A stretch of 20,000 nucleotides of DNA. It comes from an uncultured virus (IMG/VR IMGVR_UViG_3300042691_027621) (taxonomy: Duplodnaviria; Heunggongvirae; Uroviricota; Caudoviricetes). The stretch covers positions 55,339 to 75,338 of IMG/VR virus record IMGVR_UViG_3300042691_027621; one strand, 5' to 3'. Shown one piece after another: positions 1 to 20,000 of the stretch (position 1 is its first letter; the number at the start of each line of letters is the position of its first letter). The position numbers and the translations under genes are program-made. The notes under the pieces were generated by a model, which made no database searches, was not told the origin of the DNA, and saw only the letters and a program-made list of their open reading frames with translations.

Positions 1-1
1 G

Positions 2-2565: not shown

Positions 2566-2568
2566 ATA
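2561..2568 (+). promoter_or_regulatory. T4-type late promoter TATAAATA
   Basis: Exact match to the T4 gp55-dependent late consensus, overlapping the upstream stop and 27 nt before the fibre ATG (2596). SD-like AGGA/AGGT follows. Confidence 0.6.
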
Positions 2569-4345: not shown

Positions 4346-5311
4346 ATGACATACGTAAGCGGTGGTTTAATACAGGCCACAGACTATAATGGATTCGTAA
4401 GTACCAATGCCAATGCCAACGTCAACGACGTTTGGGGCACTGGATCGGGAGACAAAGGCTGGGGGCAAAGTGCGCTGGCCACTGTGAGTGCTACCAATAC
4501 AATCACTGCTACTCAATGGGGTAGTTTGGTCAACACTCTTGCCAGCATGGGAAGCCAGACCAACACCGCAATCACTGCAAGATCAGCACCCACCACTGGG
4601 CAAACCATTGGCATACTATCAGCTCTCAACACTGATCTAACCAACATAACCACTAACCGCGCATTTGCAGCAGCCAACGGTAGTCAATTTACAGGATGGA
4701 CTGGCACCAATTCTAAAACCGCTGCCACATCGGGCGCACCCTGGAGCATTACTTTTACCAATACAGTAACTTTTGCTAGTGCAAATGCTGCTCGCTGGTT
4801 TTTCAATGCTGGAGGTCGAATCAAACTAGACGTAAGCAAAACAGCCACAGGTGCCACAGGCGATCCAGAATGGAACGATCTGGCCAATACCTTGTGTGGT
4901 GATATATTTTTCACCGGCATTGCTGCCAGCAAAACTATTGCTGGTGCTGCATACACTGGAACTACCAAAGTTGGCGGTTCGGGTACGCCCAACACACTGA
5001 GCACTGCTACTGGTTTTTATGCTTTGACCCCTGGTGCAGCAGCCACTATTATCTATAAACAGTTTGCCGATACTGCTCCGTACACCGCAAACTTTATTCA
5101 ACACAGTGTGGCGCTGAACGCCGCTTCGACTGTTTTAACATTTACTACACTTTGGTCAGCATCAGACGGCGACCCAATTTCGGGCGGTACTGCAAGTACA
5201 GGAGCCACTCCCGGAACTGCACCTACTACTATTTGTACATATTTCCCGCCCTCAACAACATATTTGAGCAACAGTTGGGGAACACCAGCTGTAGCTGCTA
5301 CAACAGTTTAA
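4346..5311 (+). CDS. Thr/Ala/Gly/Ser-rich virion structural protein (fibre/baseplate-associated)
   Basis: 321 aa, low charge, very T/A/G/S-rich, AGGA SD upstream, last gene before the terminator. Confidence 0.6.
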   Translation: MTYVSGGLIQATDYNGFVSTNANANVNDVWGTGSGDKGWGQSALATVSATNTITATQWGSLVNTLASMGSQTNTAITARSAPTTGQTIGILSALNTDLTNITTNRAFAAANGSQFTGWTGTNSKTAATSGAPWSITFTNTVTFASANAARWFFNAGGRIKLDVSKTATGATGDPEWNDLANTLCGDIFFTGIAASKTIAGAAYTGTTKVGGSGTPNTLSTATGFYALTPGAAATIIYKQFADTAPYTANFIQHSVALNAASTVLTFTTLWSASDGDPISGGTASTGATPGTAPTTICTYFPPSTTYLSNSWGTPAVAATTV

Positions 5312-5314
5312 TCA

Positions 5315-5350
5315 AAAGGGCCGCAAGGCCCTTTACTTTTCTCTTTTTTT
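5315..5350 (+). terminator. Rho-independent terminator
   Basis: Perfect 8-bp stem AAAGGGCC-GCAA-GGCCCTTT (5315-5334, GNRA loop) followed by ACTTTTCTCTTTTTTT, 3 nt after the stop at 5311. Confidence 0.9.
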
Positions 5351-5360
5351 CCTGTATACT
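5332..5360 (+). promoter_or_regulatory. Sigma70-like promoter, probably leaderless, for the modification operon
   Basis: TTTACT (5332-5337), 17 nt spacer, TATACT (5355-5360). ATG at 5367 is at the expected +1 position and has no SD. Confidence 0.6.
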
Positions 5361-5366
5361 AACATC

Positions 5367-5675
5367 ATGGATACTGATGCCCTTGTTGCTCACGCACGAG
5401 CAAGATTTAATCATGCTGTTGCAAAACGGCTACTAAAAGAAAAATACCTGGCCAAAATGACCTTTGCTTATCGCGGTGGCATGTGGCGTGCTGGTCCTGA
5501 ACTGCTGGCTGTGTTACAAACTGTGCCAGTAGAAGATGAAGTGGTTATTGTTGACTTATACGAAAACCCTGTTAAAATTGATCCACTAGAACTACAGCAC
5601 TTGGCATTTGACCGTTGGCAAGAACAAATGAATGCCTGGCACGTGGAGTTTGAAGAAATGAGCAAACGTCGATGA
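5367..5675 (+). CDS. Hypothetical protein, first gene of operon
   Basis: 102 aa; ATGA overlap with the next gene; no recognised motif. Confidence 0.8.
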   Translation: MDTDALVAHARARFNHAVAKRLLKEKYLAKMTFAYRGGMWRAGPELLAVLQTVPVEDEVVIVDLYENPVKIDPLELQHLAFDRWQEQMNAWHVEFEEMSKRR

Positions 5676-6475
5676 CCACCGGCGCACTGATATTTGCATT
5701 TAACAATGAACAAACCGACTACCTTGCTATGGCTCGATGGAATGCTGCAAACATTCGTAGGCACCTTAACATTCCAGTGGCCGTGGTCACAGACCAAACA
5801 GGATCTGATATTGTGGAAGGATTTGATCACGTCATTCATGCAGACCCCAAAGCGGGAGGAACCCGTTATTTCCAGGATTATGATGCCACTGTTACGTGGC
5901 ATAACGCAGGCCGAGTTGATGCTTATAGTTTGTCCCCTTGGGACTGCACACTAGTATTAGATGCTGATTATGTTGTGGCCAGTGCTGCACTGCGCAATGT
6001 AATCAACGCTGATCGTGACTTTATGTGCTATCGCTGGGCCACAGACATGACCACTGGACGGGAGTTAGAAGCTCTCAACACATTTGGGCGCCATCAAATG
6101 CCCATGCGTTGGGCCACAGTAATGATGTTCCGTAGATCAAACACAGCACAATATATATTTGACTGTATGCAAATGATTCAAGACAACTGGCAACACTATC
6201 GCGATTTGTATGCCATAGACAAAAGCACATATCGCAACGACTTTGCATTGAGTATTGCTCTGGGCATTGTAAGTGGACACACCAACCATGTAAGTGATAT
6301 TCCATGGCCCATGATGAGCGTCATGCCTGAACATACTTTAAAGCAAGTGGACGCTGACAGTTACGAGATTACATTTGTAGATGCTGATCGAAAACCTCAA
6401 ACAGTAGGCTGGATTGGTTTTGATTTCCATGCCATGGGCAAACGTCATTTGGAGAATATCGTTGCGTCCTGTTGA
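5672..6475 (+). CDS. GT-A fold glycosyltransferase, GT8-like
   Basis: N-terminal GALIFAFN strand, VAVVTD, SPWDCTLVLDADY (DxD motif), RND, C-terminal FHAMGK His motif. Confidence 0.7.
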   Translation: MTTGALIFAFNNEQTDYLAMARWNAANIRRHLNIPVAVVTDQTGSDIVEGFDHVIHADPKAGGTRYFQDYDATVTWHNAGRVDAYSLSPWDCTLVLDADYVVASAALRNVINADRDFMCYRWATDMTTGRELEALNTFGRHQMPMRWATVMMFRRSNTAQYIFDCMQMIQDNWQHYRDLYAIDKSTYRNDFALSIALGIVSGHTNHVSDIPWPMMSVMPEHTLKQVDADSYEITFVDADRKPQTVGWIGFDFHAMGKRHLENIVASC

Positions 6476-7226
6476 AGAACAAGGTTACATTATTCCTGCG
6501 TTCAATGTAGACAAGATAGACTACGTTGATTGTGCTCGTACCTTGGCAAAAACTTTACTGGCACAACATCCCAGGGCACGTATCTGTTTGCTGACCAACG
6601 AACCCTATGCAGCGGACTATAGTTTGTTTGCCTACACACACGTTGTAGACATCAATCGAGAAAATCCCTATGCCAACGACCCTTTGGTATTTGCTCAAAC
6701 ACCCTTCCGCGAAACTATCAAGCTAGAAGCAGACATGCTGATTGCCAGTCCAATAGATCACTGGTGGACCATGTTTAGGCATCGTGATGTGGTGTTGTCC
6801 ACTGGCTGCCGTAACTGGCGCGACGAAATCAGCACAGCTCGAGACTACCGAACAGTTTTTGATCAAAACAATTTGCCAGACGTGTACAATGCTATTACCT
6901 ATTGGCGTCGCAGTGAAATGGCCAAAGAGTTCTTTGACACTGTGCGCAATATATTTGTTCATTGGACAGAATATCGTCGGCTCATCAAATACTCGCCCGA
7001 TGTACCAGATACAGATTTGGTCTATGCCATGGCTGCACAGGTTATAGGGCCTGAATTGGTTACTATTCCAGGATCGCCCTCAATTGTACACATGAAACAA
7101 GCACATGCAGGCACAGCCACAAAAGACTGGACACAAGAATTGGTTTGGGAAATGAATCCATTGAGAATCAATACCGTTGCTCAATGGGGTGCGTTCCACT
7201 ATAATGTTAAAAGGTGGCAACCATGA
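6462..7226 (+). CDS. GT8-like glycosyltransferase paralog with DxD changed to EAD
   Basis: Start reassigned to TTG 6462 (GGAG at 6451-6454). GYIIPAFN, ICLLTN, TPFRETIKLEADML, RRSEMAKEFFD and VHMK align by eye with the preceding protein. Confidence 0.65.
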   Translation: MRPVEEQGYIIPAFNVDKIDYVDCARTLAKTLLAQHPRARICLLTNEPYAADYSLFAYTHVVDINRENPYANDPLVFAQTPFRETIKLEADMLIASPIDHWWTMFRHRDVVLSTGCRNWRDEISTARDYRTVFDQNNLPDVYNAITYWRRSEMAKEFFDTVRNIFVHWTEYRRLIKYSPDVPDTDLVYAMAAQVIGPELVTIPGSPSIVHMKQAHAGTATKDWTQELVWEMNPLRINTVAQWGAFHYNVKRWQP

Positions 7227-7549
7227 TGACCCCAGATGAATTCTTTGGTGTATTAGAAAGTATGCCACAACCTCAGTCTGTATTTTATAGACTGTATTAT
7301 GAAGGTGAACGCCCACTATTCTACAGCATGGAAGACTTGCCCGGTACATACATTGAAGTTACCCCTGAACAGTATGCTAGGAGCCAAATGAAAGTGCGTA
7401 TTCGCAACGGAAGGATAATTCCTATCACTTGGCAAACGGCACAAAAACTCGCACCCAGCAACGCAGGCACACTGTGCCATTTGCAAGATGTTGCTATTGT
7501 TGTAAAAGAAAACGGAACCTATTGGAGCAAACGGACTTATGAAAGTTGA
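7223..7549 (+). CDS. Hypothetical protein
   Basis: ATG 7223 gives an ATGA overlap with the previous stop; 108 aa; overlaps the next gene by 11 nt. Confidence 0.75.
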   Translation: MMTPDEFFGVLESMPQPQSVFYRLYYEGERPLFYSMEDLPGTYIEVTPEQYARSQMKVRIRNGRIIPITWQTAQKLAPSNAGTLCHLQDVAIVVKENGTYWSKRTYES

Positions 7550-8459
7550 TATCGCAGATTTAGACTGCATTTACTTAACCTATGACGAACCACAAAAAGA
7601 AGAGTTTTGGATCAAAATTCGCAACATGGTGCCTTGGGCAAAACGGGTGGATGGCGTTAAGGGCAGCGATGCTGCTCACAAAGCGGCGGCGCAGGCCAGT
7701 GACAGTGATAGATTCATTCTCATTGATGGCGACAATCTCCCCAACCCGTCGTTTTTTAATCAGACGCTTGTTCTTCCTAATGAAGAATACAAGAACGCTG
7801 TGTTCCGGTGGCGGGCACGTAATCACATTAACGGTTTGATGTACGGCAACGGAGGCCTAAGTTCATGGACAAAGGAGTTTGTGATGAACATGCAAACTCA
7901 TGAAGCCACAGACGGACGAGATGAAACTCAGGTAGAGTTTTGTTTTGATCCCTTGTATTGGCCCATGCATGATTGTTATTCAACAACTTACCCCAACGGT
8001 GATGATTTCCATGCGTGGCGTGCAGGATTTCGAGAAGGCGTTAAGATGTGCCTGCAACGCGGTCGCAAACCCACGGTAGAAGAATTTAAAAATCAAGTGC
8101 TACGAAACTTAGACAATCTCACAATCTGGCACAACGTGGGCACAGATGTAGAATATGGCGAGTGGGCCATCGCTGGCGCACGTCAAGGCACCTATATGAC
8201 CATGCTTACTAATTGGGATCATACCTTGGTGCAAAGTTTTGATGCCTTGGCCGAACTATGGCTCACAGTGAAAGATGGCCAACCAAGATTGCTCAGTAAT
8301 CGGTTGGCCGAGGACTTGCACACACAATTGGATCTGCCAATGGCCATCCTAGAATGTGAACAAAGCGCATTTTTTAAACATCACTATCGTTTGAACTGGC
8401 ACAATCAAGGTGTTATGGTTCGAGAAATTGACGTTATTCGCAAGATAGAAGGTTGGTAA
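7539..8459 (+). CDS. GT-A fold (GT2-like) nucleotide-sugar transferase-like protein
   Basis: DCIYLTYDEP first strand, GVKGSDAAHKAAA helix, then DRFILIDGDN (hydrophobic strand + DxD), GNGGL, AWRAGFREGVK. Confidence 0.55.
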   Translation: MKVDIADLDCIYLTYDEPQKEEFWIKIRNMVPWAKRVDGVKGSDAAHKAAAQASDSDRFILIDGDNLPNPSFFNQTLVLPNEEYKNAVFRWRARNHINGLMYGNGGLSSWTKEFVMNMQTHEATDGRDETQVEFCFDPLYWPMHDCYSTTYPNGDDFHAWRAGFREGVKMCLQRGRKPTVEEFKNQVLRNLDNLTIWHNVGTDVEYGEWAIAGARQGTYMTMLTNWDHTLVQSFDALAELWLTVKDGQPRLLSNRLAEDLHTQLDLPMAILECEQSAFFKHHYRLNWHNQGVMVREIDVIRKIEGW

Positions 8460-9844
8460 TGAGCAAAGGCGACCAAAGCCGATTCATGAGCAGTGCGGAA
8501 CAAATGTCGCAGGACCTAGGTCCTGCGCTGTGTTTGGCTAAATGGAAGCAGGTCAGCTTTCACTTGCCCACAGGTCTAAACAACTCATGTTACCATCCGC
8601 CCCTGCACCAAATTACCGCAGACGATTTGACACGCCCTGGTGGCCTGCACAATACAGCACACAAGAAATCTCAACGAGTAATGATGATACAAGGCGAAAA
8701 GCCTGGTGAGTGTCAGTATTGCTGGAACATGGAGAATCTAGGCAAACTCAGTGACAGACATTATCGTTCAGGAGAGCCGTGGGCCGCTGTGGATTTTGAA
8801 CGCATTCGTAATTCAACAGGAACTGAAGATGATGTCATTCCAAGCTACGTGGAAGTCAATTTTAATAATGCTTGCAATCTTCGTTGTAGTTATTGCAGCC
8901 CTCAGTTTAGCAGCAGTTGGATGGACGAAACTACTAGACACGGAGCATACCCAACTAGTAAACCTCATAATGATCCTGCACACTTTGTGGGTTCGCGACG
9001 CCCCATACCGGCTAGGGAAGCTAATCCCTACGTTGATGCGTTTTGGGCGTGGTGGCCCACTCTCTATCCCAAACTAGAACACTTTCGCATGACCGGCGGC
9101 GAGCCGCTGATGGACAAAAATACCTATCGAGTGTTTGACTATGTGTTGGAGCATGACAATCCCAAACTGCATTTGAATGTAACTTCAAACTTTTCAGTAG
9201 AGGATGCGCTGTTTGAAAAATACATGGACTATGCCAAGAGATTATGTACACCACGGATTGAACATTTCATGCAGTATGTTAGCCTAGACTCGGGCATTGC
9301 TACGCAAGCAGAATACCTGCGTCACGGCCTAGACTATGCTCGCATGAGTCGCAATGTTGAACGATTCTTACAGGAAATACCAAGTCGCAACAGCCTGACG
9401 TTTATTATTACAATGAACAATCTCAGTGTCACAGGACTGCGGCCCATGCTGGAATGGATACTGAATCTACGCCGGACACACAGTTCAACCTATCAACGTG
9501 TATGGTTTGATACACCTGTGCTGCGCGAACCTGCTTGGCAAAGTCTACAAATACTGCCAGAAAGTTATGTACGTCAACTAGAACAGGCTAGAGATTACAT
9601 GCTGGCCAACTTGACCACAGAAGCCAATCCCCTACACGGATTCAAAGACTACGAAGTGCAACGCCTGGAGCGTGACATTGCCTGGATGCGTGAAGGACAG
9701 TTACAGTACAATAGTATAGCCAAAGCAGACTTCTATCGTTTCTTTGCAGAACACGATCGTCGAAGGGGCACAGACTTTTTGAAGTCTTTTCCTGAGATGC
9801 GAGCCTGGTGGGCAGAATGTGAGTATCATGCTAGGAATACATAA
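8459..9844 (+). CDS. Radical SAM protein with N-terminal twitch-type domain (copy 1, subtype A)
   Basis: CNLRCSYC (CxxxCxxC), MTGGEPL; N-terminal CLAKW...SCYH...CQYC. ATG 8459 forms a TAATG overlap. Confidence 0.9.
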   Translation: MSKGDQSRFMSSAEQMSQDLGPALCLAKWKQVSFHLPTGLNNSCYHPPLHQITADDLTRPGGLHNTAHKKSQRVMMIQGEKPGECQYCWNMENLGKLSDRHYRSGEPWAAVDFERIRNSTGTEDDVIPSYVEVNFNNACNLRCSYCSPQFSSSWMDETTRHGAYPTSKPHNDPAHFVGSRRPIPAREANPYVDAFWAWWPTLYPKLEHFRMTGGEPLMDKNTYRVFDYVLEHDNPKLHLNVTSNFSVEDALFEKYMDYAKRLCTPRIEHFMQYVSLDSGIATQAEYLRHGLDYARMSRNVERFLQEIPSRNSLTFIITMNNLSVTGLRPMLEWILNLRRTHSSTYQRVWFDTPVLREPAWQSLQILPESYVRQLEQARDYMLANLTTEANPLHGFKDYEVQRLERDIAWMREGQLQYNSIAKADFYRFFAEHDRRRGTDFLKSFPEMRAWWAECEYHARNT

Positions 9845-10934
9845 AATTTTTGTTGACGAATGGGCCGAAACCTGGGACTTGCTAAAGCCCTATGCTGATG
9901 AGGTGTTTTGGCAATGGCCTAAAGAATTGGATCCTTCTAGTGTGTACATTGTAGGTCGTGTGCTGCTGAAGCAACACTGGACAGAAATCACAGAATGGGC
10001 TACTCAGCATCCCGGACGCATTGTGTTTTCAAATCCTGCTGAAGGATCTGAAACTATACTACTGCAACTCCGACGACTGCGTATTACAGAGCATGTGCGT
10101 GACGGACGTATTGGCCTACTAACCTCCGGTGACATGGAACCCGGCTGGCGTTATTGCAAAACAGATTGCTACTTCTCTAACATAGTAGAGTTCACAGAAA
10201 ATCGAGCAGCACAGATTGAAGCTGCACTGGACCACAAAGTTCAGCGCCCTTATGAATTTTTGTTCTTAAATGGTAGACTGAGACCGCATCGCAAGTACCT
10301 AATAGACCATCTAAGAGCTCAAGAGTTATTGTCAAATGCACTGTGGACCAATCTTGGTAGTCAAGTTGAAATGGCTTTTACGTCTGCGTTGGACACAGGC
10401 AAAACAGAACCCATTAGATTGTTGCCCCCAGAATACGAGATCCCACGTGCTGTGTCGCAGTTGAATACAGTACCTGAGTCGGGGTTTGTCAAACACGAGT
10501 TGTTCAACAACACCTGGGGTGATGCCATAGTCAATCATCGGTGCTACACAGACGCCTGGTTCAGTTTGGTAACAGAAACAATATTTGATTATCCGCACAC
10601 GTTTCGCACAGAAAAGATCTACAAGCCTATTCTAATGGCACATCCATTTGTGGTTGCAGCCAATCCAGGCTATTTGCGAGATTTAAGAAACGCTGGATTC
10701 AAAACATTCGACACCTTGATAGATGAATCGTATGATCAAATCAATACCCCAACTGCACGAATAGAGCGTATAATAGATACAGTGCGTGACATAAGTTTGA
10801 ATGGTGCTGCTAATTTCTGGGAAGCCAGTCGTGATATCTGTAAATACAATCAGCAACATCTTGTGGAATACAATCGTCAGCAACGTGCTGAGTTGCCCAC
10901 ACTACTAGAACAATACCTCAATGAACGATCTTGA
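9828..10934 (+). CDS. GT-B fold glycosyltransferase-like protein (GT10/fucosyltransferase-like C-terminal motif)
   Basis: FLFLNGRLRPHR and FSLVTET...RTEKIYKPILMAHPFVV, resembling the GT10 F.L.FEN...TEK...P.V donor-binding motif. ATG 9828 preferred over GTG 9819. Confidence 0.55.
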   Translation: MLGIHKIFVDEWAETWDLLKPYADEVFWQWPKELDPSSVYIVGRVLLKQHWTEITEWATQHPGRIVFSNPAEGSETILLQLRRLRITEHVRDGRIGLLTSGDMEPGWRYCKTDCYFSNIVEFTENRAAQIEAALDHKVQRPYEFLFLNGRLRPHRKYLIDHLRAQELLSNALWTNLGSQVEMAFTSALDTGKTEPIRLLPPEYEIPRAVSQLNTVPESGFVKHELFNNTWGDAIVNHRCYTDAWFSLVTETIFDYPHTFRTEKIYKPILMAHPFVVAANPGYLRDLRNAGFKTFDTLIDESYDQINTPTARIERIIDTVRDISLNGAANFWEASRDICKYNQQHLVEYNRQQRAELPTLLEQYLNERS

Positions 10935-12249
10935 TTTTCGCCAGCAAGTACTGGATACCTTGAGTCCTAGCTTTTGTGGGGCAAAGTGGTTTAATGCTAC
11001 CATTTGGCTTGGTAGCGGCATGAGCACCAGCTGCCATCACCCGCCAGCTCATTTGGTGGACATTGATAAAGTCACTACCAACCCTAAGCTGCTGCACAAT
11101 ACACCCGAAAAGAAAGACGACCGTGCAAAAATGCAGGCAGGCGAACGTCCCAGTGGTTGCGAATACTGCTGGAAGATTGAAGACATGGGTCGCAATGCTG
11201 TTTCAGACCGTGTGTACAAATCAAAAATTTACCCTATAGCTGCATTAAAGGAAGCACATGAAACTCCGCCTGATCAAGACGTGGATTTGCGAACTCTTGA
11301 AATTTCTTTTGATCGGACCTGCCAGTTTGCTTGTTCTTATTGTAATCCTGCATTCAGTAGCACATGGGTTAAAGACATTAGGAATAACGGACCCTATATG
11401 GGCCTTGTGTCTGACGGTCGTAATCACTTTACACATGAGCATTCAAGTGCTCAATTGTATCGCTTCGGGGAGACCAATCCGTATGTTGAAGCTTTTTTTG
11501 CGTGGTGGGAATCAGATCTACATCACACATTACAAGAATTAAGAATCACCGGCGGTGAGCCACTAATGAGCGGCCACACCTGGAAACTGATTGACTGGTT
11601 CCGTAACAATCCAGGACGCAGTCGCACACGCCTGGCCATCAACTCAAACCTGGGTGCAGATGTAGATGTGGATCGACTGCTGGATTCCATACAGGGGCTG
11701 GATGTGGACGTCTATACCAGCCAGGAAGCTGTGGGCGTTCAAGCCGAATACATACGTGATGGCCTGGACTATGTTGCCTGGAAGGCAAATGTAGAAAAGA
11801 TCTTGGCCAGTGGCCGTGTGCGTACCTTGCACTTTATGGGCACTATTAACGCACTGTGCCTGCCCAGCTTGCCCGACCATTTGCGTTATCTACTGGAACT
11901 AAAACAACGCTACGGGCGTGACGCAGTAAGTTACACACTGAACATTTTGAGATTCCCCAGCTTTCAAAGTGCGCTGGTAATGCCACATGAACTACGTGCT
12001 AGATTTTCTGTAGAACTAAAAGAATTGCACTACCGCAATCAACACAATCCGCTGTTTCATGAGCATGAATTGGATCACTTGCAACGGCTGATTGATTACT
12101 TGGATGTAGTCGAAACTCCGCATTCAGAAGCATTTGACCTCCCTAAACTACTGAACGATTTTGTTGAATTTTATCGACAGTACGATATTCGCAGAGCAAA
12201 GAACTTTGCACTGACGTTCCCTAAATTAAAGAAACTCATAAACAAATGA
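10921..12249 (+). CDS. Radical SAM protein with N-terminal twitch-type domain (copy 2, subtype A)
   Basis: CQFACSYC, ITGGEPL; N-terminal CGAKW...SCHH...CEYC. Shares LHNT, SDR, NPYV.AF.AWW with copy 1. Confidence 0.9.
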   Translation: MNDLDFRQQVLDTLSPSFCGAKWFNATIWLGSGMSTSCHHPPAHLVDIDKVTTNPKLLHNTPEKKDDRAKMQAGERPSGCEYCWKIEDMGRNAVSDRVYKSKIYPIAALKEAHETPPDQDVDLRTLEISFDRTCQFACSYCNPAFSSTWVKDIRNNGPYMGLVSDGRNHFTHEHSSAQLYRFGETNPYVEAFFAWWESDLHHTLQELRITGGEPLMSGHTWKLIDWFRNNPGRSRTRLAINSNLGADVDVDRLLDSIQGLDVDVYTSQEAVGVQAEYIRDGLDYVAWKANVEKILASGRVRTLHFMGTINALCLPSLPDHLRYLLELKQRYGRDAVSYTLNILRFPSFQSALVMPHELRARFSVELKELHYRNQHNPLFHEHELDHLQRLIDYLDVVETPHSEAFDLPKLLNDFVEFYRQYDIRRAKNFALTFPKLKKLINK

Positions 12250-13934
12250 CCCTAGAAGAATTACAAACACAATACAACGTAGTTGGCATAATTGATTTGT
12301 CTGCATGGACTAACAACTACGAAACCAGCACACAGTGGCTACGCAGTCAATGCCAAGCTGTGTACCAACCAGCCTACGCAGAAAATCAACGCATTGTGTT
12401 TGTACATTCACATGATTACTATGTTAAGAATGCAGACTCTGCGGGTATCATTTTAAAGAACATACAAGTAGCACTGAATGAAACTGATATTAGCAATTAT
12501 TTTGCGCTAGTACTCAGTACCAATCCCAATATTGAACAAGAAATGGCTTATATCAATTCGCAGAGTTCTGACCCAGTGCCTGTGAAATTTGAACGCTGTG
12601 TTGGCGAGTTTGTTACAAAAGAATTGACCCAGCATCCTTACAGTCGTAAAGAGCAGTATCAGTACGGATCGGCTAACCCTATAAAAATCAGCCTAAATGA
12701 AGTCAGCGAGCAAGATAAATTTTTACTCAGTGAAAGCAAGAACTTCTGCATTTACCCTTGGATTCACCTGCACGCTTGGCCCACGGGCGAAGCATATCCT
12801 TGCTGTCATGCCACACAGCATCCTGTGTATGGTAACACACGTAAAGAAACCTTGTCTGATGTATGGAATGGCACACGCATGCGACAACTAAGACAAGACA
12901 TGCTGAGTGATACACCAAATGAAACCTGCCGTAAATGTCACGAACAAGAAGATTCTGGATTCTTTAGTGGCAGACAAAGTGCAAACAAACATCACGGACA
13001 CCATATTGATCGTGTGCATAGAACAGGACCTGATGGCACATTCAATGAGTTTGAAATGACTTATTGGGATATTCGTTTTAGTAATCTTTGCAATTTAAAA
13101 TGTCGTAGCTGTGGACATATCTTTAGCTCACAGTGGTATCAAGATCAAGCCAAGTTAGCTGGAGGTACCTGGAAACAATCTAATCCTGTGCTTAACTATG
13201 CAGGACGTACAGAAACAGACATGTGGGAACAATTGATTCCACATCTGGACTATGTGGAACAGATTTATTTTGCCGGTGGCGAACCCTTGCTGATGGAAGA
13301 ACACTATCATATTCTCGACGAGTTAGTAAAAAGAAAAAGATTTGATGTAAGATTGATTTACAACACCAATTTTACACACACTGACTTGAAAGGTAATTCG
13401 GTATTTGACTACTGGAAACAATTTGATTCGGTGGCTGTAGGCGCCAGCTTAGATGCTTCAGGAGCACGTGGAGAATACATACGCAAAGGCACAGACTGGG
13501 CACAAGTAGAACAAAATCGCAGAGACATGTTGGCAATTTGTCCTGGCGTGGATTTTTATATTTCGCCCACACTCAGTATCATGAATGCGCTACACCTGCC
13601 AGATTTTCATCGTGACTGGGTAGAAAAAGGCCTGCTAAAACCGCAAGATCTAAATGTGAATATTCTTCAGGACCCCTACGAATACAGACTGGACATTGCT
13701 ACTCCTGAATACAAACAACAAATACAACAGCGATTTCTTGAACACATTGAATGGTTGCGACCACAAGACCCCTTGCATAGAGCCACAGTGGGTTTTGAAT
13801 CGGCAATCAACTACATGATGAGCACAGACAACACCGCACTGATACCTAAATTTTGGGACAAGACTCAACAGCTGGATAAAATCAGAAAAGAAAACATCTT
13901 GGACATTATTCCTGAATTAGCTGCATTAAAATGA
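12246..13934 (+). CDS. Radical SAM protein with twitch-type domain and about 165-aa extra N-terminal domain (copy 3, subtype B)
   Basis: CNLKCRSC, FAGGEPL, YNTN; CIYPW...PCC...CRKC starting near residue 168. Confidence 0.9.
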   Translation: MTLEELQTQYNVVGIIDLSAWTNNYETSTQWLRSQCQAVYQPAYAENQRIVFVHSHDYYVKNADSAGIILKNIQVALNETDISNYFALVLSTNPNIEQEMAYINSQSSDPVPVKFERCVGEFVTKELTQHPYSRKEQYQYGSANPIKISLNEVSEQDKFLLSESKNFCIYPWIHLHAWPTGEAYPCCHATQHPVYGNTRKETLSDVWNGTRMRQLRQDMLSDTPNETCRKCHEQEDSGFFSGRQSANKHHGHHIDRVHRTGPDGTFNEFEMTYWDIRFSNLCNLKCRSCGHIFSSQWYQDQAKLAGGTWKQSNPVLNYAGRTETDMWEQLIPHLDYVEQIYFAGGEPLLMEEHYHILDELVKRKRFDVRLIYNTNFTHTDLKGNSVFDYWKQFDSVAVGASLDASGARGEYIRKGTDWAQVEQNRRDMLAICPGVDFYISPTLSIMNALHLPDFHRDWVEKGLLKPQDLNVNILQDPYEYRLDIATPEYKQQIQQRFLEHIEWLRPQDPLHRATVGFESAINYMMSTDNTALIPKFWDKTQQLDKIRKENILDIIPELAALK

Positions 13935-14569
13935 GTTTGAATTTTGATAGTTTTTTTGGCGCACCTACTTCCTATGTGCCGGGACCGTATTTTTTAGCAG
14001 CAGGTTGCAGTCATACTTCAGCGGTGGGGGTAGATGCTGATCAATGCTGGGCAGGCCAACTGGCTCAACGCACTCGAATCAAGACTTGTAATCTAGCCGA
14101 AGCCGGGGGCAATGCCTGGATTGCCAGTATGCGTATAGCACAGTGGATTCTGGTCACCGGTCGTCCAGAGTTTGTTGTGGTACAATGGCCTCACCCCATA
14201 CGCACAGTGATATGGAAAAACGGACAAGGTAATTCTGTTAACGTACACGACACTGAAGATCATTTATTTCACACCCGCTTGCGCTACGGTGACTCCAATT
14301 ACTGGGCTGAGTGGATGCAGGCAATAATTACTACAAATGCCATTTGCGTCGCAGCCAAAATCCCCATTATAAATTGGAGTCTTGACAACGTTGATCCGCA
14401 CTATCTTGCACTGTTAAAGGCCAATGGCATTGTTGTGCATGATCAAACAGATCAACCACGCTGGGAAAGAGACCGGTCGGGCTCAGATCAACGACATGCC
14501 GGGCCCTTGTCACATGCGCAATGGGCACAACAATTACAGGAAATGTTAAATGCAATTACCACACGATAA
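13931..14569 (+). CDS. SGNH/GDSL-fold acyl-esterase or acyltransferase
   Basis: Block I AAGCSHT, block II NLAEAGGN, VVVQW strand, block V DQRHAG (DxxH). Confidence 0.7.
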   Translation: MSLNFDSFFGAPTSYVPGPYFLAAGCSHTSAVGVDADQCWAGQLAQRTRIKTCNLAEAGGNAWIASMRIAQWILVTGRPEFVVVQWPHPIRTVIWKNGQGNSVNVHDTEDHLFHTRLRYGDSNYWAEWMQAIITTNAICVAAKIPIINWSLDNVDPHYLALLKANGIVVHDQTDQPRWERDRSGSDQRHAGPLSHAQWAQQLQEMLNAITTR

Positions 14570-15788
14570 ATTCTGCGTATTACCTTGGATCAGTTTGGAG
14601 GCCAGCCCTATAGGTACAGTACGTCCTTGTTGCCTAGCCGACGACGAAATTGTAGACAACGCTGGCAACAAATTTGAATTAAGTACAGCAAATTTTGGAG
14701 ACATTCAAAATTCCAATCACATGCGCGATCTTCGCCAGGAGTTCTTGGATGGAAAAAAACCTCAAACCTGCCGTAAGTGCTGGAACGAAGAACGTGCAGG
14801 ACGCACATCAAAACGTATGCACACCCTGGACAGACTCAAACATGTGGTCACAGATACAGAGTGGACCGCAGATGCTAAACCTTTGATGTTCCTGGATCTC
14901 AAGCTGGGCAACATCTGCAACTTGAAATGCCGTATATGCGGTTCATGGTCTAGCAGTCAATTTGCCGCAGAAGAAATCCAATGGACTGCCTCGCATGAAC
15001 GCAAGCAAACCTATGCATATCAAATGTTGCGAGCTGGTGCATGGCCACAGGAAAATCAACAATTCTGGAATCAAATTGATAGCTGCCTGACAGATATTCG
15101 TTATATTGAATTCACAGGTGGTGAGCCATTTATGATTAAAGAACACTTTGCTATGTTACAAGGCATTGTGGATCGTGGTATTGCACATCAGGTAGAAATA
15201 CATTACAACACCAACGGAACCATTTTTCCCGAAGAAGCTGTTGAAATCTGGCGCCATTTCAAAACTGTAGAAGTAGCGTTCAGCATCGACGACATGGGTC
15301 CTCGTTTTGAATATCAGCGCACCAATGCCAAGTGGGTAGAAGTAGAAGAAAATATAGCACGTTTCTTTGAATTGAAAAACACGTTGCCTGGGTTGAAATT
15401 ACAGGTCTGCTGCACAGTCAATGTATTCAACGTCATGTATTTGCATCAAACGTCAGACTGGATTGTACAGCAAGGATTTGACTTTGTGTATTGGAATATG
15501 ATGCATGATGCTTGGTATTTTTCTATAGCCACACTGCCCAAAGAAGCCAAAGAAAAAATTGATCAGCATTTTGCACGGCATGTTACACAGCCCAGCTGTC
15601 AAGCTGAATTTATTCGCATAATTGATTTTATGAATCGTGGTGCTGATTCCGACGGTGATATGTTGCGTATGAAAATACGTGACTTAGATCGTAAACGCGG
15701 ACAGAATCTTGCAGACTTTGCACCCGAATTTGCAGCCATGATCAACTACAATTACAATGACACAGACCCCAACGCTCCCAAAGCCTGA
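14550..15788 (+). CDS. Radical SAM protein with N-terminal twitch-type domain (copy 4, subtype B)
   Basis: CNLKCRIC, FTGGEPF, YNTNG; N-terminal CVLPW...PCC...CRKC. Confidence 0.9.
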   Translation: MQLPHDKFCVLPWISLEASPIGTVRPCCLADDEIVDNAGNKFELSTANFGDIQNSNHMRDLRQEFLDGKKPQTCRKCWNEERAGRTSKRMHTLDRLKHVVTDTEWTADAKPLMFLDLKLGNICNLKCRICGSWSSSQFAAEEIQWTASHERKQTYAYQMLRAGAWPQENQQFWNQIDSCLTDIRYIEFTGGEPFMIKEHFAMLQGIVDRGIAHQVEIHYNTNGTIFPEEAVEIWRHFKTVEVAFSIDDMGPRFEYQRTNAKWVEVEENIARFFELKNTLPGLKLQVCCTVNVFNVMYLHQTSDWIVQQGFDFVYWNMMHDAWYFSIATLPKEAKEKIDQHFARHVTQPSCQAEFIRIIDFMNRGADSDGDMLRMKIRDLDRKRGQNLADFAPEFAAMINYNYNDTDPNAPKA

Positions 15789-17073
15789 CACCTTGTGCAT
15801 GGCACCTTGGACGCACACATATCTAAGCCCGCAAACCGAGCGTAGAATGTGCTGTGCGTCGAGAGAACCTGCACAGAACTTTGCGCAATACATAGACACA
15901 GCCGCAGGCACTGGGCGCTATATTCCTGTCACACTAGAACAGCACTGGAACAGTGATCACATGAAGTCAGTTCGTCGCAGAATGATGGCAGGGGAAACCT
16001 TGCCTGAGTGTGAAGTATGCAATGACCGACTGCTTAATACCAGCGTTTACCGCACTTACTTTGATCATTTGTTTGGGCACAAACTAGAGGAAATATATGC
16101 AAGTACCGATGCTTCAGGGCACACAAGCATGGCTCCTGTTTCGTGGGATTACCGCTTTAGTAACCTTTGCAACTTCAAATGCAGAACCTGCGGAGATATG
16201 CTTTCGTCAGCATGGGAGACCGAAGAAAAGACTCAAAACATGGTTGACTGGCATAATCCAAAAAATAATTGGATGCAACCTAATTATCGTCAACAGATCA
16301 CTGAGTTTCAGGATAGTCAGGTTGAGGCCGAATTTGCTGCCGCCGTTGAGCGACATGATGTTGAAGAGATCTACTGGGTAGGTGGCGAACCCTTGATGTA
16401 TGAACAACACTGGCGTTACATGCAACGCATTGTTGAACTAGGAGATGGACCCAGATTATATGCACGATACAACACTAACCTTAGCCGAATTCATTATCGG
16501 GGGCGTGACCTTTATAGTGATATCCTGGATCATATACGAGATTGGCAAATTTGCGCGAGCATTGACGGCACTGGAGCAATCGGTGAATACATTAGAACAG
16601 GTCTTGACTACGCAACGTTCTGCAGAAACTTCGAAGCAGGACTGCAACACCAGCGAAACCGACGACAGATGAGACTGGACTTTACATTGACGTTGCCGGG
16701 CATGTTTGAAGTTGATGCAATGCAGCAATTGGCCTCCAGCTATGACGTAGAATTGTTGGTCAAAGTGATATTCAGTTTTACTCCAGATATTATTATGAGT
16801 CCTTTGGCATTGCCACGACATCTGTTGGATGTCTGGGTAGATGAACTAGTGCCCAATTGTACCTCCGGTGCCATGCGCGATGTACTGCTACAGTTAAAGA
16901 ACCGTCCCACATTTGAACAACAATGGCCTGAAGAATATCGTGCAGGTCTTGCTCGAGGCAAGGCTCGTGTGTTAAAATTAGAAAGCATAAGAACACAGTC
17001 GGTAACAATGACTGACATTCTGGGCACACGTCCAGAAATACTAAAATGGTGGAACGAAATTGGAATCAATTGA
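15757..17073 (+). CDS. Radical SAM protein with N-terminal twitch-type domain (copy 5, subtype B)
   Basis: CNFKCRTC, WVGGEPL, YNTN; N-terminal CMAPW...MCC...CEVC. Confidence 0.9.
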   Translation: MTQTPTLPKPDTLCMAPWTHTYLSPQTERRMCCASREPAQNFAQYIDTAAGTGRYIPVTLEQHWNSDHMKSVRRRMMAGETLPECEVCNDRLLNTSVYRTYFDHLFGHKLEEIYASTDASGHTSMAPVSWDYRFSNLCNFKCRTCGDMLSSAWETEEKTQNMVDWHNPKNNWMQPNYRQQITEFQDSQVEAEFAAAVERHDVEEIYWVGGEPLMYEQHWRYMQRIVELGDGPRLYARYNTNLSRIHYRGRDLYSDILDHIRDWQICASIDGTGAIGEYIRTGLDYATFCRNFEAGLQHQRNRRQMRLDFTLTLPGMFEVDAMQQLASSYDVELLVKVIFSFTPDIIMSPLALPRHLLDVWVDELVPNCTSGAMRDVLLQLKNRPTFEQQWPEEYRAGLARGKARVLKLESIRTQSVTMTDILGTRPEILKWWNEIGIN

Positions 17074-18094
17074 AATAGATCTCCGTGGCAACAGCGGAGA
17101 CTGTCTAACTGTTTATATCAATGTGCACGACAACAGTTTGAGTCGTAAATGGTTGGCCGCGCTCAATGATATTATTCGTAATCAACTGCATCTAGAAAAG
17201 AACTATTGTTGGATGGGCTGGACTGAGCATGATCGCAACTTAGAATATCTTTGTACACAAGTCAATCGCAGTATTCATGCAATCAACAGCAGCAATTTAG
17301 ATTATCGTATACAAGACTTTTTTAGTCCTGCCAATGTAATACAAAAAAATCTTGATGTCAATCATGACAAAATGAATCATCTGCATCGTTATTTCGAAGA
17401 CCTGCAAGGAACTTCGGGTGCAATGAGCAGGTACTACACAGCCGCAGACGATCACACACGTTGGCACATACGCCAATTAAATTTATTGTGTCATGAAATA
17501 GAAAGTCTTGTGCTGAGCATGCGCAAAGATGTGCAAGCACCTGAATGGAAGCGTCCCAGCCAGTTGATGTGCTGGCTCAATGCCCCACGTTTTGTGCTAG
17601 AACAAGAAGATTATGAGTTGTTTGGTGTTGACACCATTAACCGTAGTCTTGGTGGTGTGTATGTGGGCGTGAACAAAGCAGTAGGCAAGCACCATTGGGA
17701 AGTGTTCAACGACGAAGGCCGCGACAGTCGCATCGGCGAACTTGTTACGTCCTCACTAAAAGCACAGACTGAAGCCGCAGGAGATTTTGATATTGAGTGG
17801 GCACGTGACCCTGGCGCTTACCATTGGCAAAAGACCAAATTGGCTGAATTCCGTGAATGGCTTATCGCGAACGGATTTGATCCTGACGACAAAGCCCTCA
17901 CTATCGGCCATCCCAAGGTTGCTCAAGTTGATTTGCAGCGCTCATTCGGCACAACAGACTACACAGAGATATGGGCACAGCTAGCCCAACATCTGGATGT
18001 GTATAAAATACGCACCAGTTCAGCAGAAGCTACATATAACTATAACTGGAGCGATGCAGACTATGCAGAGCAACAAATAAAGGAACTTAAATGA
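17060..18094 (+). CDS. Hypothetical protein
   Basis: 344-aa ORF, TTG start overlapping the previous gene by 14 nt, ATGA overlap with the next; no family recognised. Confidence 0.8.
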   Translation: MESIEIDLRGNSGDCLTVYINVHDNSLSRKWLAALNDIIRNQLHLEKNYCWMGWTEHDRNLEYLCTQVNRSIHAINSSNLDYRIQDFFSPANVIQKNLDVNHDKMNHLHRYFEDLQGTSGAMSRYYTAADDHTRWHIRQLNLLCHEIESLVLSMRKDVQAPEWKRPSQLMCWLNAPRFVLEQEDYELFGVDTINRSLGGVYVGVNKAVGKHHWEVFNDEGRDSRIGELVTSSLKAQTEAAGDFDIEWARDPGAYHWQKTKLAEFREWLIANGFDPDDKALTIGHPKVAQVDLQRSFGTTDYTEIWAQLAQHLDVYKIRTSSAEATYNYNWSDADYAEQQIKELK

Positions 18095-18192
18095 ACTGGA
18101 TTAAAAGCATCTGGAATCGAATTACCTTGGAAATTCGCTATCGTAAAAAGCTAAAAGAACTACGCAAGCGCGATCCATTTATCTACAAATGA
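18091..18192 (+). CDS. 33-aa basic micro-protein MNWIKSIWNRITLEIRYRKKLKELRKRDPFIYK (absent from ORF track)
   Basis: Hand-translated. AAGGA SD at 18080-18084; ATGA overlaps at both ends exactly bridge the only apparent gap in the operon. Confidence 0.8.
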   Translation: MNWIKSIWNRITLEIRYRKKLKELRKRDPFIYK

Positions 18193-18833
18193 AAAAGCAG
18201 TTGTTAACAGTAGGGGATAGTTTTACCTATGGTGATGAACTTGACGATATCTATCAGGCTTGGCCTTATCAGTTGGCAGATCTACTAGATTACGAAGTGC
18301 ATAACATGGGCCTAAGCGGTGCCAGCAATGCTAGTATATTGCGTAGATCACTAGAAGAACTAGTAACCAACGAGTACGATCTAGTAATCATTGGATGGAC
18401 TAACCCGGGACGTATCGAGTGGAAAGACGACACTGGTATTCCCTATAACATGTGGCCAGGACATGCAGGGTCGTCGGCGTTCTTTGTTGAACAACCATGG
18501 CGGTTGGATCTGCTGAGCTACATTAGTCAACATCATAATTCATCATACCTGTATCAGCGATATCTAATTCAAGTTCTTTCTTTACAATCTTATTTTGAAG
18601 CACATAACATTGAGTATAGAATGATAGATACTGTACGCAACAACTACTATCGAAAAGTTGGCGCCGAAGAACATGATAAATTAGAAGCAAAAATAAACAC
18701 TAAAAAGTTTGTAGGCTGGAACAGTTTTGGAATGTCTGAGCTAACTATGGATTGTCCACGCGGTGTAGGTAGTCACCCACTGGAAAAAGGCCATAAAAAA
18801 ATAGCCAATGAAATATATCAAGGATTAAAATGA
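18189..18833 (+). CDS. SGNH/GDSL-fold acyl-esterase or acyltransferase
   Basis: TVGDSFTYG (block I), NMGLSGASN (block II), DLVIIGWT, C-terminal GSHPLEKGH. Confidence 0.8.
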   Translation: MKKQLLTVGDSFTYGDELDDIYQAWPYQLADLLDYEVHNMGLSGASNASILRRSLEELVTNEYDLVIIGWTNPGRIEWKDDTGIPYNMWPGHAGSSAFFVEQPWRLDLLSYISQHHNSSYLYQRYLIQVLSLQSYFEAHNIEYRMIDTVRNNYYRKVGAEEHDKLEAKINTKKFVGWNSFGMSELTMDCPRGVGSHPLEKGHKKIANEIYQGLK

Positions 18834-20000
18834 ATATTCTAGGGATATCCGGCGGCTTTCACGATGCTGCTGCCACAGTAATTGATAGTTCAGGCAACAT
18901 CTTGTTTGCTGGCCATGCAGAACGCTATAGTAAATGCAAGAGCGATGCTGACATTGGCTCTGCACTGTTAGACGAACTAGAGCAATACAATCCCATTGGT
19001 ACTGTAGCATACTATGAACGACCGCTAGTAAAGCAACTGCGTCAATGGTACGCAGGACAGGGCATAGAGTGGGATAAACTAACTGCTCGACAAGCTGTGA
19101 ACAAACAAACACAAGGGAGGTACGATCATGTGCCCATACAGTCTTTCAATCATCATCTTAGCCATGCTGCTGCGGGGTTTCAAACGAGCACGTTCCAAAG
19201 AGCCACAGTTGTGGTAATAGATGCTGTGGGTGAATTTGAAACAATCACAATATGGGGAGCACAATATGATCGAAGTGGTGTGGCAAAGTATAAAAGACTT
19301 TGGAGCCAGCGTTATCCACATTCAATTGGACTGTTCTACAGCGCAGCTACTGGCAGCGTTGGCCTACGCCCACTAGATGAAGAATACATCTTGATGGGCA
19401 TGGCTGCTTACGGCAGCTCAGAACATAATCTAACACTGCAAAAAAAGCTAGTCAGTGATACTGTGAATATTAAATTCCGTGAAAATCTACACACAGGCAT
19501 AGACAGTAAACACCTAGCTGACATGACAGACTATGACATTGCTGCCAGCGCACAGGCCATTGCAGAAAATTTGATCAACAATGTCATGAGCAGAGCACGT
19601 GATTTTAAGTGGTCTGACAATCTGGTATACATGGGTGGCGTTGCTCTCAATTGTTCAGCCAACAGGCATATAGGACGGTATTTTGATAACATATGGATTA
19701 TGCCTTGCCCTGGCGATGCTGGCAGTAGCCTGGGTGCTGCTGCCCTGGCTTGGGGTAAAAGAGTTAAATGGACTGATGCTTATCTCGGACACAATATCGC
19801 TGGTGACTATCCTGTTAATGATATTCTCAATCATCTGGCATCTGATCTCATTGTTGGTGTTGCTAGCGGCCGTGCTGAGTTTGGTCCTCGTGCACTAGGA
19901 AATCGTAGCTTGCTGGCCGATCCACGAGGCGAGCGTATCAAGGACCAAGTAAATGCAATCAAACGTAGACAAAAATTTAGACCTTTTGCCCCTGTTATTT
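18830..20000 (+). CDS. Carbamoyltransferase, NodU/CmcH/TobZ family, 3'-truncated (absent from ORF track)
   Basis: Hand-translated from ATG 18830: MNILGISGGFHDAAA...ERYSK...HHLSHAAAG...IDAVGE...SIGLFY...EYILMGMAAYG...GGVALNC...PGDAGSSLGAA...GRAEFGPRALGNRSLLADPR...KRRQKFRPFAPVI; open to the window end. Confidence 0.95.
   Translation, partial: MNILGISGGFHDAAATVIDSSGNILFAGHAERYSKCKSDADIGSALLDELEQYNPIGTVAYYERPLVKQLRQWYAGQGIEWDKLTARQAVNKQTQGRYDHVPIQSFNHHLSHAAAGFQTSTFQRATVVVIDAVGEFETITIWGAQYDRSGVAKYKRLWSQRYPHSIGLFYSAATGSVGLRPLDEEYILMGMAAYGSSEHNLTLQKKLVSDTVNIKFRENLHTGIDSKHLADMTDYDIAASAQAIAENLINNVMSRARDFKWSDNLVYMGGVALNCSANRHIGRYFDNIWIMPCPGDAGSSLGAAALAWGKRVKWTDAYLGHNIAGDYPVNDILNHLASDLIVGVASGRAEFGPRALGNRSLLADPRGERIKDQVNAIKRRQKFRPFAPVI

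Follow-up and report, generated by a model that had tools for sequence, protein, structure and literature searches.

What does a large phage make with an unbroken run of enzymes of sugar and radical chemistry placed behind the genes of its virion? The question is raised by the final 20 kb of a 75,338-bp IMG/VR virus record (IMGVR_UViG_3300042691_027621, positions 55,339 to 75,338; CheckV completeness 22%), a stretch of 20,000 nucleotides that is called the window below and in which an operon extends from position 5367 to the end of the contig. An earlier note, made from the letters of the sequence, had proposed that this operon is a phage-encoded system for the building and tailoring of a glycan. 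Of the readings that we compared, this one is the best supported and we adopt it with guarded confidence: soluble cytoplasmic enzymes encoded by the operon would build a sugar-based product and then edit it chemically. New here, and missing from the inventory of the earlier note, are a sigma-70-like promoter and a terminator that stand before the operon and a 33-amino-acid (33-aa) peptide that is translationally coupled to the carbamoyltransferase.

Between positions 5367 and 20000 we counted 17 co-oriented open reading frames (ORFs) on the + strand, including the 33-aa ORF. They are separated by zero intergenic bases and overlap by 4-32 nt at each junction, the start of GTb being taken as 6462 (Table 1). 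The earlier description of at least 16 co-oriented genes devoid of intergenic bases was therefore accurate; the same note had placed them directly behind tail-fibre genes, but a 55-nt spacer lies in between and the fibre identity of the upstream genes is only plausible. Its inventory of four glycosyltransferase (GT)-like proteins, five twitch-type radical S-adenosylmethionine (SAM) enzymes, two SGNH proteins and one carbamoyltransferase was recovered as well, except that three of the GT-like proteins hold at the level of fold or profile and the fourth (9819-10934) is left without an assignment. None of the 19 window proteins is hydrophobic enough at any point for a membrane helix (Kyte-Doolittle maximum over 19 residues <1.6 throughout), and Pfam detected no flippase, polymerase, initiating (phosphoglycosyl)transferase or exporter among them or among 53 accessory-gene representatives of related loci. 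This points to a cytoplasmic chemistry acting on a soluble acceptor and argues against a classical lipid-linked envelope pathway.

Table 1. Positions of the features of the 20-kb window, with the match or observation on which each assignment is based.
Feature	Positions	Strand	Basis or remark
C-terminal end of 4872-aa virion structural protein	1..1795	+	contig ORF 42515-57133; phrog_10938, E 1.3e-297
g201, 201-aa conserved structural-module protein	1960..2565	+	phrog_11259, E 1.2e-70; 16/80 loci
TATAAATA, T4-type late-promoter-like motif upstream of fib578	2561..2568	+	single copy in window
fib578, baseplate/fibre-like virion protein, GN[VI]TGGN repeats	2596..4332	+	phrog_14394, virion structural protein
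fib321, fibre-like, Ser/Thr-rich (28%)	4346..5311	+	52/80 loci; no family match
Intrinsic terminator (hairpin, T-run) at the end of the structural genes	5315..5350	+	AAAGGGCCGCAAGGCCCTTT then T-run
Sigma-70-like promoter TTTACT-17-TATACT (candidate)	5332..5360	+	promoter scan; ends 6 nt before first ATG, overlaps terminator
s102, conserved small protein	5367..5675	+	53/80 loci; weak RsoM2USA homolog; no family match
GTa, GT8-like GT-A transferase, invariant DxD	5672..6475	+	D97 and D99 invariant in 19 sequences
GTb, GT8-like paralog with EAD motif	6462..7226	+	phrog_1903; start 6462 inferred from relatives
s111, conserved small protein	7214..7549	+	49/80 loci; no family match
GTc, nucleotide-diphospho-sugar-transferase (GT-A) fold, helical C-terminal domain	7539..8459	+	invariant D63-G-D65
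rS1, N-terminal-twitch radical SAM	8453..9844	+	NF033640 303.5 bits; own ortholog clade, support 100
u371, conserved protein, fourth "GT" of the earlier note	9819..10934	+	no GT family match
rS2, N-terminal-twitch radical SAM	10921..12249	+	NF033640 278.9 bits; clade support 100
rS3, N-terminal-twitch radical SAM, extra N-terminal extension of ~160 aa	12246..13934	+	NF033640 405.9 bits, residues 164-560; clade support 96
sg212, divergent SGNH-like, GCSHT replacing GDSxT	13931..14569	+	hhalign vs SGNH214 family 98.6%, E 1e-15
rS4, N-terminal-twitch radical SAM	14550..15788	+	NF033640 348.3 bits; clade support 96
rS5, N-terminal-twitch radical SAM	15757..17073	+	NF033640 280.7 bits; clade support 100
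u344, conserved protein of phage-only fold family	17060..18094	+	predicted model pLDDT 87.6
33-aa near-invariant peptide, C-terminus ...RKRDPFIYK	18091..18192	+	shares ATGA with the end of u344 and with the start of SGNH214
SGNH214, SGNH/GDSL-like hydrolase or acyltransferase	18189..18833	+	Pfam DUF6071 36.1 bits, cut-off 27
CmT, O-carbamoyltransferase of the NovN/GdmN/TobZ/NodU family	18830..19999	+	Carbam_trans_N E 8.6e-34, Carbam_trans_C E 1.3e-20

The viral origin of the contig is established by the 55 kb upstream of the window, which hold genes for a major head protein of the T4 type (phrog_138, E 2.7e-98), a prohead protease and a portal, for a gp55-like late sigma factor and gp46/47-like nuclease subunits, and for proteins of the baseplate hub and wedge. 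The capsid protein shares 61-66% identity with its counterparts in Vibrio phage 2.275.O, PA5oct, Serratia BF and Yersinia fHe-Yen9, which places the phage with the Rak2/PA5oct jumbo group as a distant relative of T4; the whole window gave no megablast match in the phage collection. Near-identical DNA was present in 20 public runs from 15 studies, labelled mostly as freshwater, lake (water) or metagenome, and window pieces showed zero differences from the contigs of two DNA runs, indicating that the stretch is real DNA. In the metatranscriptome run X20, short contigs match parts of GTc without a difference and parts of other genes almost exactly; such contigs from an RNA library are no proof of transcription, and the uncovered parts are meaningless in this regard. 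The earlier note had named a cellular contig carrying a known lipopolysaccharide (LPS) or capsule locus as the outcome that would overturn its proposal. The viral gene content excludes a cellular contig, and the viral context, the lack of predicted membrane helices and the absence of any Wzx/Wzy- or ABC-type family from Pfam scans of the window and of the accessory genes of relatives speak against such a locus.

The same block recurs in related viruses. Scanning IMG/VR with the five radical SAM paralogs matched at least 685 stretches, at least 648 of which were confirmed, and the best 80 loci, some of them near-duplicates, were taken for comparison. Many of these loci end at a contig end or at the 10-kb flank, the gene misses being therefore upper bounds, and low identities in the most distant ones correspond to cross-matches between paralogs. 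By tblastn, all five radical SAM queries were detected in 80/80 loci, GTc in 75, GTa and GTb in 65 each, u344 in 63, u371 in 59, CmT in 57, s102 in 53, SGNH214 in 17 and sg212 in 4. This recurrence in all 80 loci shows that the arrangement is not due to chance and that the genes do co-occur in large-phage relatives, the opposite of what would have spoken against the glycan proposal. A reduced island occupies the same place in the isolated Ralstonia phage RsoM2USA, consisting of s102, GTa, GTb, GTc (37% identity), one rS1/rS2-like radical SAM gene and a second GTc-like gene, all of them annotated as hypothetical; ORFs 349-354 of this phage are not discussed in the accessible part of its paper (PMC8504454). 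Our literature searches retrieved no description of the island. Within the accessible text of two related sources, Nishimura et al. 2017 (PMC5332604) only pointed out 12 radical SAM genes in a marine T4-like genome, and a "moraphage" paper (PMC12619734) concerns a different lineage and nowhere mentions radical SAM. One relative carries an HNH/NUMOD3 homing-endonuclease-like gene inserted within its island (L073:16211-17002, - strand).

The assignment of the five radical SAM enzymes, rS1 to rS5, is firm: each of them scores 279-406 bits against the NCBIfam model NF033640 (N_Twi_rSAM, twitch domain-containing radical SAM protein), whose cut-off is 170 bits, and all five carry a cysteine domain for an auxiliary cluster that precedes the CxxxCxxC core. 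The CxxxCxxC motif (C282, C286, C289), the GGEP motif (G344-G345-E346-P347) and four N-terminal cysteines (C168, C186, C228, C231) are invariant across the paralogs, and Pfam places SPASM in front of Radical_SAM in three of them (for rS4, SPASM at 9-78 and Radical_SAM at 119-275). Pairwise identity among the five window proteins is only 22-34%. In a quick maximum-likelihood tree of 71 rows, comprising the window, 10 chosen relatives, 4 phage-isolate proteins and 8 cellular proteins, five ortholog clades with one member per phage were obtained with supports of 96-100, the single RsoM2USA enzyme grouping next to rS2. Five separate clades indicate old paralogs which, most simply, would catalyze five different reactions. 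NF033640 itself is a catalogued family with no assigned reaction, here represented by five to seven old paralogs within one phage operon, and a literature search on the family name, extending to titles and the beginnings of abstracts, found no paper on the N-terminal-twitch family. BtrN, the twitch radical SAM dehydrogenase of butirosin biosynthesis, likewise possesses one twitch-type auxiliary 4Fe-4S domain, and a weak alignment (E 0.004-0.014) links the N-terminal part of the phage profile to the twitch region at the C-terminus of BtrN; however, the domain order is reversed in the phage enzymes and the similarity is marginal. The N-terminal extension of rS3 (residues 1-160, window 12246-12730) has no family match, and most relatives align with the protein from about residue 137, only some loci doing so from residue 1. 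The 5' part of rS1 contains a perfect 20-nt palindrome (window 8508-8527; 8-bp stems, 6 G-C pairs) that was flagged by the terminator scan on both strands.

The carbamoyltransferase is equally well identified. Both of its Pfam domains, the Kae1-like N and the YrdC-like C, pass their cut-offs in the window protein and in the full-length ortholog of L013, the closest relative, and profile matches were obtained with NovN (E 1e-76), GdmN (E 2e-69) and TobZ (E 4e-50). Residues H110, H111, H114 and D298 do not vary across 28 sequences and may include the metal-binding His/His/Asp of the Kae1-like domain. The window copy ends at residue 390 with the contig; its orthologs, at about 495 aa, are shorter than NovN (687), GdmN (about 700) and TobZ (576). 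Both SGNH-like proteins are also real. SGNH214 is assigned by DUF6071 and has the invariant serine of block I (S11 in GDSFT), Lipase_GDSL_2 reaching 30 bits, below its cut-off; sg212 is assigned by its hhalign match to SGNH214, in which GCSHT aligns to GDSFT.

What seemed to be a 94-nt gap between u344 and SGNH214 (18095-18188) proved to be the 33-aa ORF. The strict form of its C-terminal 21-aa motif was detected in 53/81 sources, in which 47 distinct DNAs encode 19 peptide variants, with entropies of 0.40/0.15/1.12 bits at the three codon positions. This pattern, together with the small number of variants, indicates strong purifying selection on the protein, above that on any enzyme of the operon. 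Among the strict-motif copies (n=54), 31 stand directly before CmT and 6 before an SGNH gene, and for 9 the locus ends; looser patterns recover the peptide from every one of the 50 loci whose CmT ORF is complete. It is kept even in L082 and L087, again with the ATGA overlap, though their CmT is 44-47% identical and u344 is missing. The peptide thus tracks CmT across loci and may therefore be a partner, a shuttle or a substrate of the carbamoyltransferase. Pfam and NCBIfam returned no family for it, no copy was detected in RsoM2USA, in K566 or in the cellular clusters described below, and we know of no such coupled peptide for the characterised NovN, GdmN, TobZ and NodU enzymes. One of the relatives, L022, has two copies of it, one of which is divergent and ends in ...KKPFIYW.

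A comparison is offered by DltX, whose tyrosine "acyl shuttle" motif FXYXXF hands D-alanine to the SGNH protein DltD, according to the accessible part of PMC12148441. Like the peptide, DltX as described there is a microprotein with an invariant tyrosine near its C-terminus, located beside an SGNH protein; in the window the order is peptide, SGNH214, CmT. In contrast to FXYXXF, the peptide has only F-I-Y and ends right after Y-K (...DPFIYK), it is devoid of a membrane helix, and neither the window nor the accessory-gene representatives of the relatives showed an MBOAT protein. The likeness, as judged from the sequences, is a resemblance only, and the peptide does not have the defining features of the DltX type.

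Among the GT-like proteins, GTa and GTb are paralogous (hhalign probability 99.8%, E 2.9e-28). Searched against the PDB, the profile of GTb reaches the GT8 enzyme glycogenin-1 at E 8.4e-7, with only ~100 residues aligned, across the part that binds the nucleotide and holds the DxD. The DxD that GTa retains is replaced by EAD in GTb, and neither protein matches Pfam Glyco_transf_8. GTc has a Rossmann-like nucleotide-diphospho-sugar transferase fold with a DxD after beta-4, in keeping with GT-A, and its best Foldseek match is the glycosyltransferase domain of A64R from the chlorovirus PBCV-1. Virus-encoded glycosylation of virions, by PBCV-1 A64R and, reportedly, on the capsids and tails of mycobacteriophages (Freeman et al. 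2023, as cited in PMC12619734), likewise involves soluble glycosyltransferases encoded beside structural genes. Those systems, however, have no radical SAM array, carbamoyltransferase or peptide, and the promoter found here is not of the late type. For u371 we detected no match in Pfam, NCBIfam or the PDB and no phage-isolate homolog. Its family is large (11020 representatives at E<=0.001), and a Pfam scan of every alignment member and of 25 distant or multidomain relatives returned no credible family. The nearest named Atlas cluster, GT10, was reached at only 0.80, and u371 was not accepted as a GT10 enzyme. The u344 model has no clear solved relative and its fold look-alikes are uncharacterised phage proteins only; nothing credible emerged when its alignment members were scanned with Pfam, and its relatives fill at least 5779 metagenomic protein clusters. 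Searched against PDB sequences, the profiles of GTc, u371 and u344 gave chance-level rows only.

The 55-nt spacer that separates the structural genes from the operon (5311-5367) contains a terminator hairpin and a promoter-like site. The hairpin is kept in relatives with compensatory changes, a strict pattern finding it in 22/45 unique upstream regions. Apart from this promoter-like site, no -35/-10 pair was detected in front of a gene anywhere in the contig. Of 45 distinct upstream regions of relatives, 30 contain such a pair; relatives retain a TATAAT-like -10, often TGTATAAT, at the same distance from the operon while the surrounding sequence drifts. In the window as a whole promoter-like sites are at chance level (43 vs 35 +/- 5), and the promoter call thus draws on this conservation. 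The motif TATAAATA, which we take to be that of T4 late promoters, has five copies in the 75-kb contig, four of them 13-35 nt upstream of structural genes, fib578 included. It is absent before the operon here and was found in 1/45 upstream regions of relatives, being absent from the other 44, and a late-operon reading was rejected. We infer that the structural genes use T4-type late promoters and that the operon is read from a host-type promoter, its expression probably being early and from a nearly leaderless mRNA.

Sugar-nucleotide enzymes have been inserted into the same block in relatives, which favours a sugar product: an SDR (short-chain dehydrogenase/reductase) epimerase/dehydratase occurs in 8 loci, a DegT/EryC1 sugar aminotransferase in 7 and a UDP-glucose dehydrogenase in 4. 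The operons of relatives also contain APS-kinase-like proteins (7 loci), FkbM and class-I methyltransferases, B12-radical SAM enzymes (4 loci), further SPASM radical SAM enzymes, a SAM synthetase (4 loci) and a PNP_UDP_1 nucleosidase-like protein (8 loci), the last two of which would suit the supply of SAM and the removal of 5'-deoxyadenosine. In L013, two more radical SAM genes follow CmT. In L022 (17016-19725), and also in L024, CmT is followed by genes for an AMP-binding enzyme (E 7e-59) and a tryptophan-halogenase homolog (E 4.5e-91).

Counterparts exist in cellular genomes. NF033640 scored above its cut-off in 4/401 sampled Bacteroidota genomes, and in one of these four the matches came from phage contigs within a metagenome-assembled genome (MAG). 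Three Bacteroidota chromosomal clusters (L103, L104 and L105; genomes G080, G152 and G284) hold 2-4 N-twitch radical SAM genes each, in the neighbourhood of a GT2-methyltransferase fusion, a polysaccharide deacetylase, a carbamoyltransferase, GDSL proteins, B12-radical SAM enzymes and methyltransferases. The module of N-twitch radical SAM, carbamoyltransferase and SGNH proteins is therefore not confined to phages, and these neighbours fit polysaccharide tailoring, with small-molecule or peptide tailoring also possible. The cluster of G080 has a gene for a secreted protein with Peptidase_S74 and T9SS (type IX secretion system) sorting domains alongside. A Haliscomenobacter sp. MAG (genome G001) includes two contigs of 183 and 148 kb (L091 and L092) with rS4 orthologs 72% and 69% identical, 12 NF033640 matches above cut-off and the 33-aa peptide. 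A scan of genome contigs with a single protein retrieved these two only. They most likely represent two related phages binned with the MAG, and the hint that they give as to the host is at best weak.

In the glycan-tailoring reading, GTa, GTb and GTc would build an oligosaccharide or attach sugars from nucleoside diphosphate (NDP)-sugars. Each radical SAM clade would then catalyze a radical reaction of its own on a sugar or NDP-sugar (such as oxidation, epimerisation, deoxygenation, C-C or C-methyl chemistry), its fully Cys-ligated auxiliary cluster conducting electrons like that of BtrN. The SGNH proteins would add or remove O-acyl groups, the carbamoyltransferase and the 33-aa peptide would O-carbamoylate a hydroxyl, and the operon would be read by the host RNA polymerase early in infection. 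Baseplate or fibre proteins of the virion are the front-runner for the acceptor, solely by gene position. A more specific and, in our estimation, improbable version is that of a so far undescribed, peptide-assisted glycan factory, in which the invariant C-terminal tyrosine of the peptide would serve either as a soluble DltX-like shuttle of carbamoyl or acyl groups between CmT and SGNH, or as the primer of a GT8-like chain edited by at least five radical SAM enzymes, the outcome being a phage "glyco-RiPP" (RiPP, ribosomally synthesised and post-translationally modified peptide) or a carrier-linked sugar made early.

Several observations weigh against this reading. The proposed reaction order, product and acceptor are deductions, and a sugar substrate for the NF033640 enzymes, none of which has a known reaction, is deduced from their neighbours only. 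No Pfam GT model is passed by GTa, GTb or GTc; GTa searched alone gave 7 weak PDB matches, all to glycogenin, at E 0.39, and GTc has low Foldseek TM-scores (0.28-0.38) and fold matches that include nucleotidyltransferases besides glycosyltransferases. Library searches assigned no family to u371, u344, s102 or s111. No NDP-sugar-forming enzyme is encoded in the window, such enzymes being found in relatives only. The sigma-70-like promoter, itself called against a chance-level number of promoter-like sites, weakens the link to late virion assembly. Finally, the AMP-binding enzyme and tryptophan halogenase of two relatives would also suit the tailoring of a small molecule or peptide, and the same applies to the up to five PhyH dioxygenases and the WelO5-like halogenase that the Bacteroidota clusters hold.

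Two rival explanations turn on the substrate of the radical SAM enzymes. The operon could be centred on the 33-aa peptide in a glyco-RiPP-like manner, with the peptide acting as substrate or primer, edited by the radical SAM enzymes, glycosylated on its tyrosine by the GT8-like enzymes and finished by the carbamoyltransferase. In its favour, purifying selection on the peptide is stronger than on any enzyme, SPASM/twitch radical SAM enzymes often are peptide maturases, GTb resembles glycogenin, which glucosylates a tyrosine, and the fold matches of GTc include the peptide S-glycosyltransferases SunS and ThuS. The weak NCBIfam matches of rS4 to the maturases YhhB, XyeB and PapB (~26 bits) point in the same direction but lie far under the cut-offs, and Pfam found no RRE (RiPP recognition element) or PqqD-like domain. 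Moreover, the peptide accompanies CmT, before which 31 of its 54 strict copies directly stand, and not the radical SAM genes: it persists in L082 and L087 without u344, while RsoM2USA, K566 and the cellular clusters have N-twitch radical SAM genes and no peptide. We consider this explanation unlikely. Alternatively, the tailored sugar could decorate bases of the phage DNA and protect them from host nucleases, as glucosylation does in T4. The enzymes are soluble and cytoplasmic, and the early, sigma-70-like promoter is of the kind expected, since the DNA-modification genes of T4 are early. A thymidylate-synthase homolog (3 loci) and a dCMP deaminase (5 loci) adjoin the island in a few relatives, and viperin and MoaA, the nearest radical SAM matches outside the family, act on nucleotides; their scores, however, are low and reflect the common radical SAM core. 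With no base-hydroxymethylase, DNA glycosyltransferase family or DNA-binding domain detected in the island by Pfam and NCBIfam, and with neither O-carbamoylation nor SGNH chemistry known, to our knowledge, on DNA sugars, hypermodification of DNA appears distinctly unlikely.

The two other explanations place the product outside the virion and the phage genome. Remodelling of the host envelope, by alteration of LPS, capsule or another surface glycan, could mask receptors or exclude superinfecting phages. It would agree with an early-type promoter and with the proximity of cellular N-twitch clusters to polysaccharide-modifying genes; the GT8 family includes LPS core transferases, and surface glycans frequently bear SGNH-dependent or carbamoyl modifications. 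Nevertheless, no membrane helix is predicted in the 19 window proteins, Pfam detected no flippase, polymerase, initiating phosphoglycosyltransferase or exporter in them or in the 53 accessory representatives, and an island that is 60-85% identical across phages of probably different hosts fits a phage-internal target better, so that we regard remodelling as quite improbable. A diffusible metabolite similar to an aminoglycoside, a nucleoside or a Nod factor and made during infection is, in our view, very unlikely. The repertoire does recall antibiotic tailoring, through the homologs NovN, GdmN and TobZ and a weak likeness to BtrN and BlsE, and the halogenase, AMP-binding enzyme and B12-radical SAM of relatives and the PhyH and WelO5-like enzymes of cellular clusters would have a place in it. 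Yet Pfam revealed no scaffold-forming enzyme (cyclitol synthase, polyketide synthase, nonribosomal peptide synthetase) and no exporter in the window or the accessory genes, and a metabolite cluster would not be expected to keep a fixed site behind the structural module over a divergence deep enough to include RsoM2USA.

The genes that precede position 5367 encode structural proteins of the virion from a baseplate/fibre module, for which the label "tail fibre" is plausible. The PA5oct and RaK2 homologs of fib578 carry the annotation virion structural protein or tail pin. Within fib578, window positions 3150-3700 contain a run of GN[VI]TGGN[LVIF]xT/S repeats with many N-x-T/S triplets, and metagenome contigs differ there by deletions and insertions of repeat units (joints at 3337-3606), which makes this run of repeats a variable one in a fibre-like protein. 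The giant structural gene and g201 are 164 nt apart, and in this interval a short ATG-initiated frame starts at ~1815 (window 1815-1959). Outside the window and near other baseplate or fibre genes, the contig encodes a 194-aa protein (5247-5831, - strand; phrog_30607, E 8e-32) with a weak match to a PHROG annotated as alpha-2,3-sialyltransferase (E 9.8e-6), which may be a second sugar-related gene beside structural genes.

A globally common clade of freshwater jumbo phages devotes 15-30 kb to an island that holds several members of a radical SAM family without a known reaction, and its five ortholog clades provide five separate enzyme targets. Identification of the product would assign a chemistry to NF033640 and show the role of a tightly coupled microprotein for a TobZ-type carbamoyltransferase. 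It would also reveal a new layer of phage biology, be it virion decoration, DNA protection or host remodelling.

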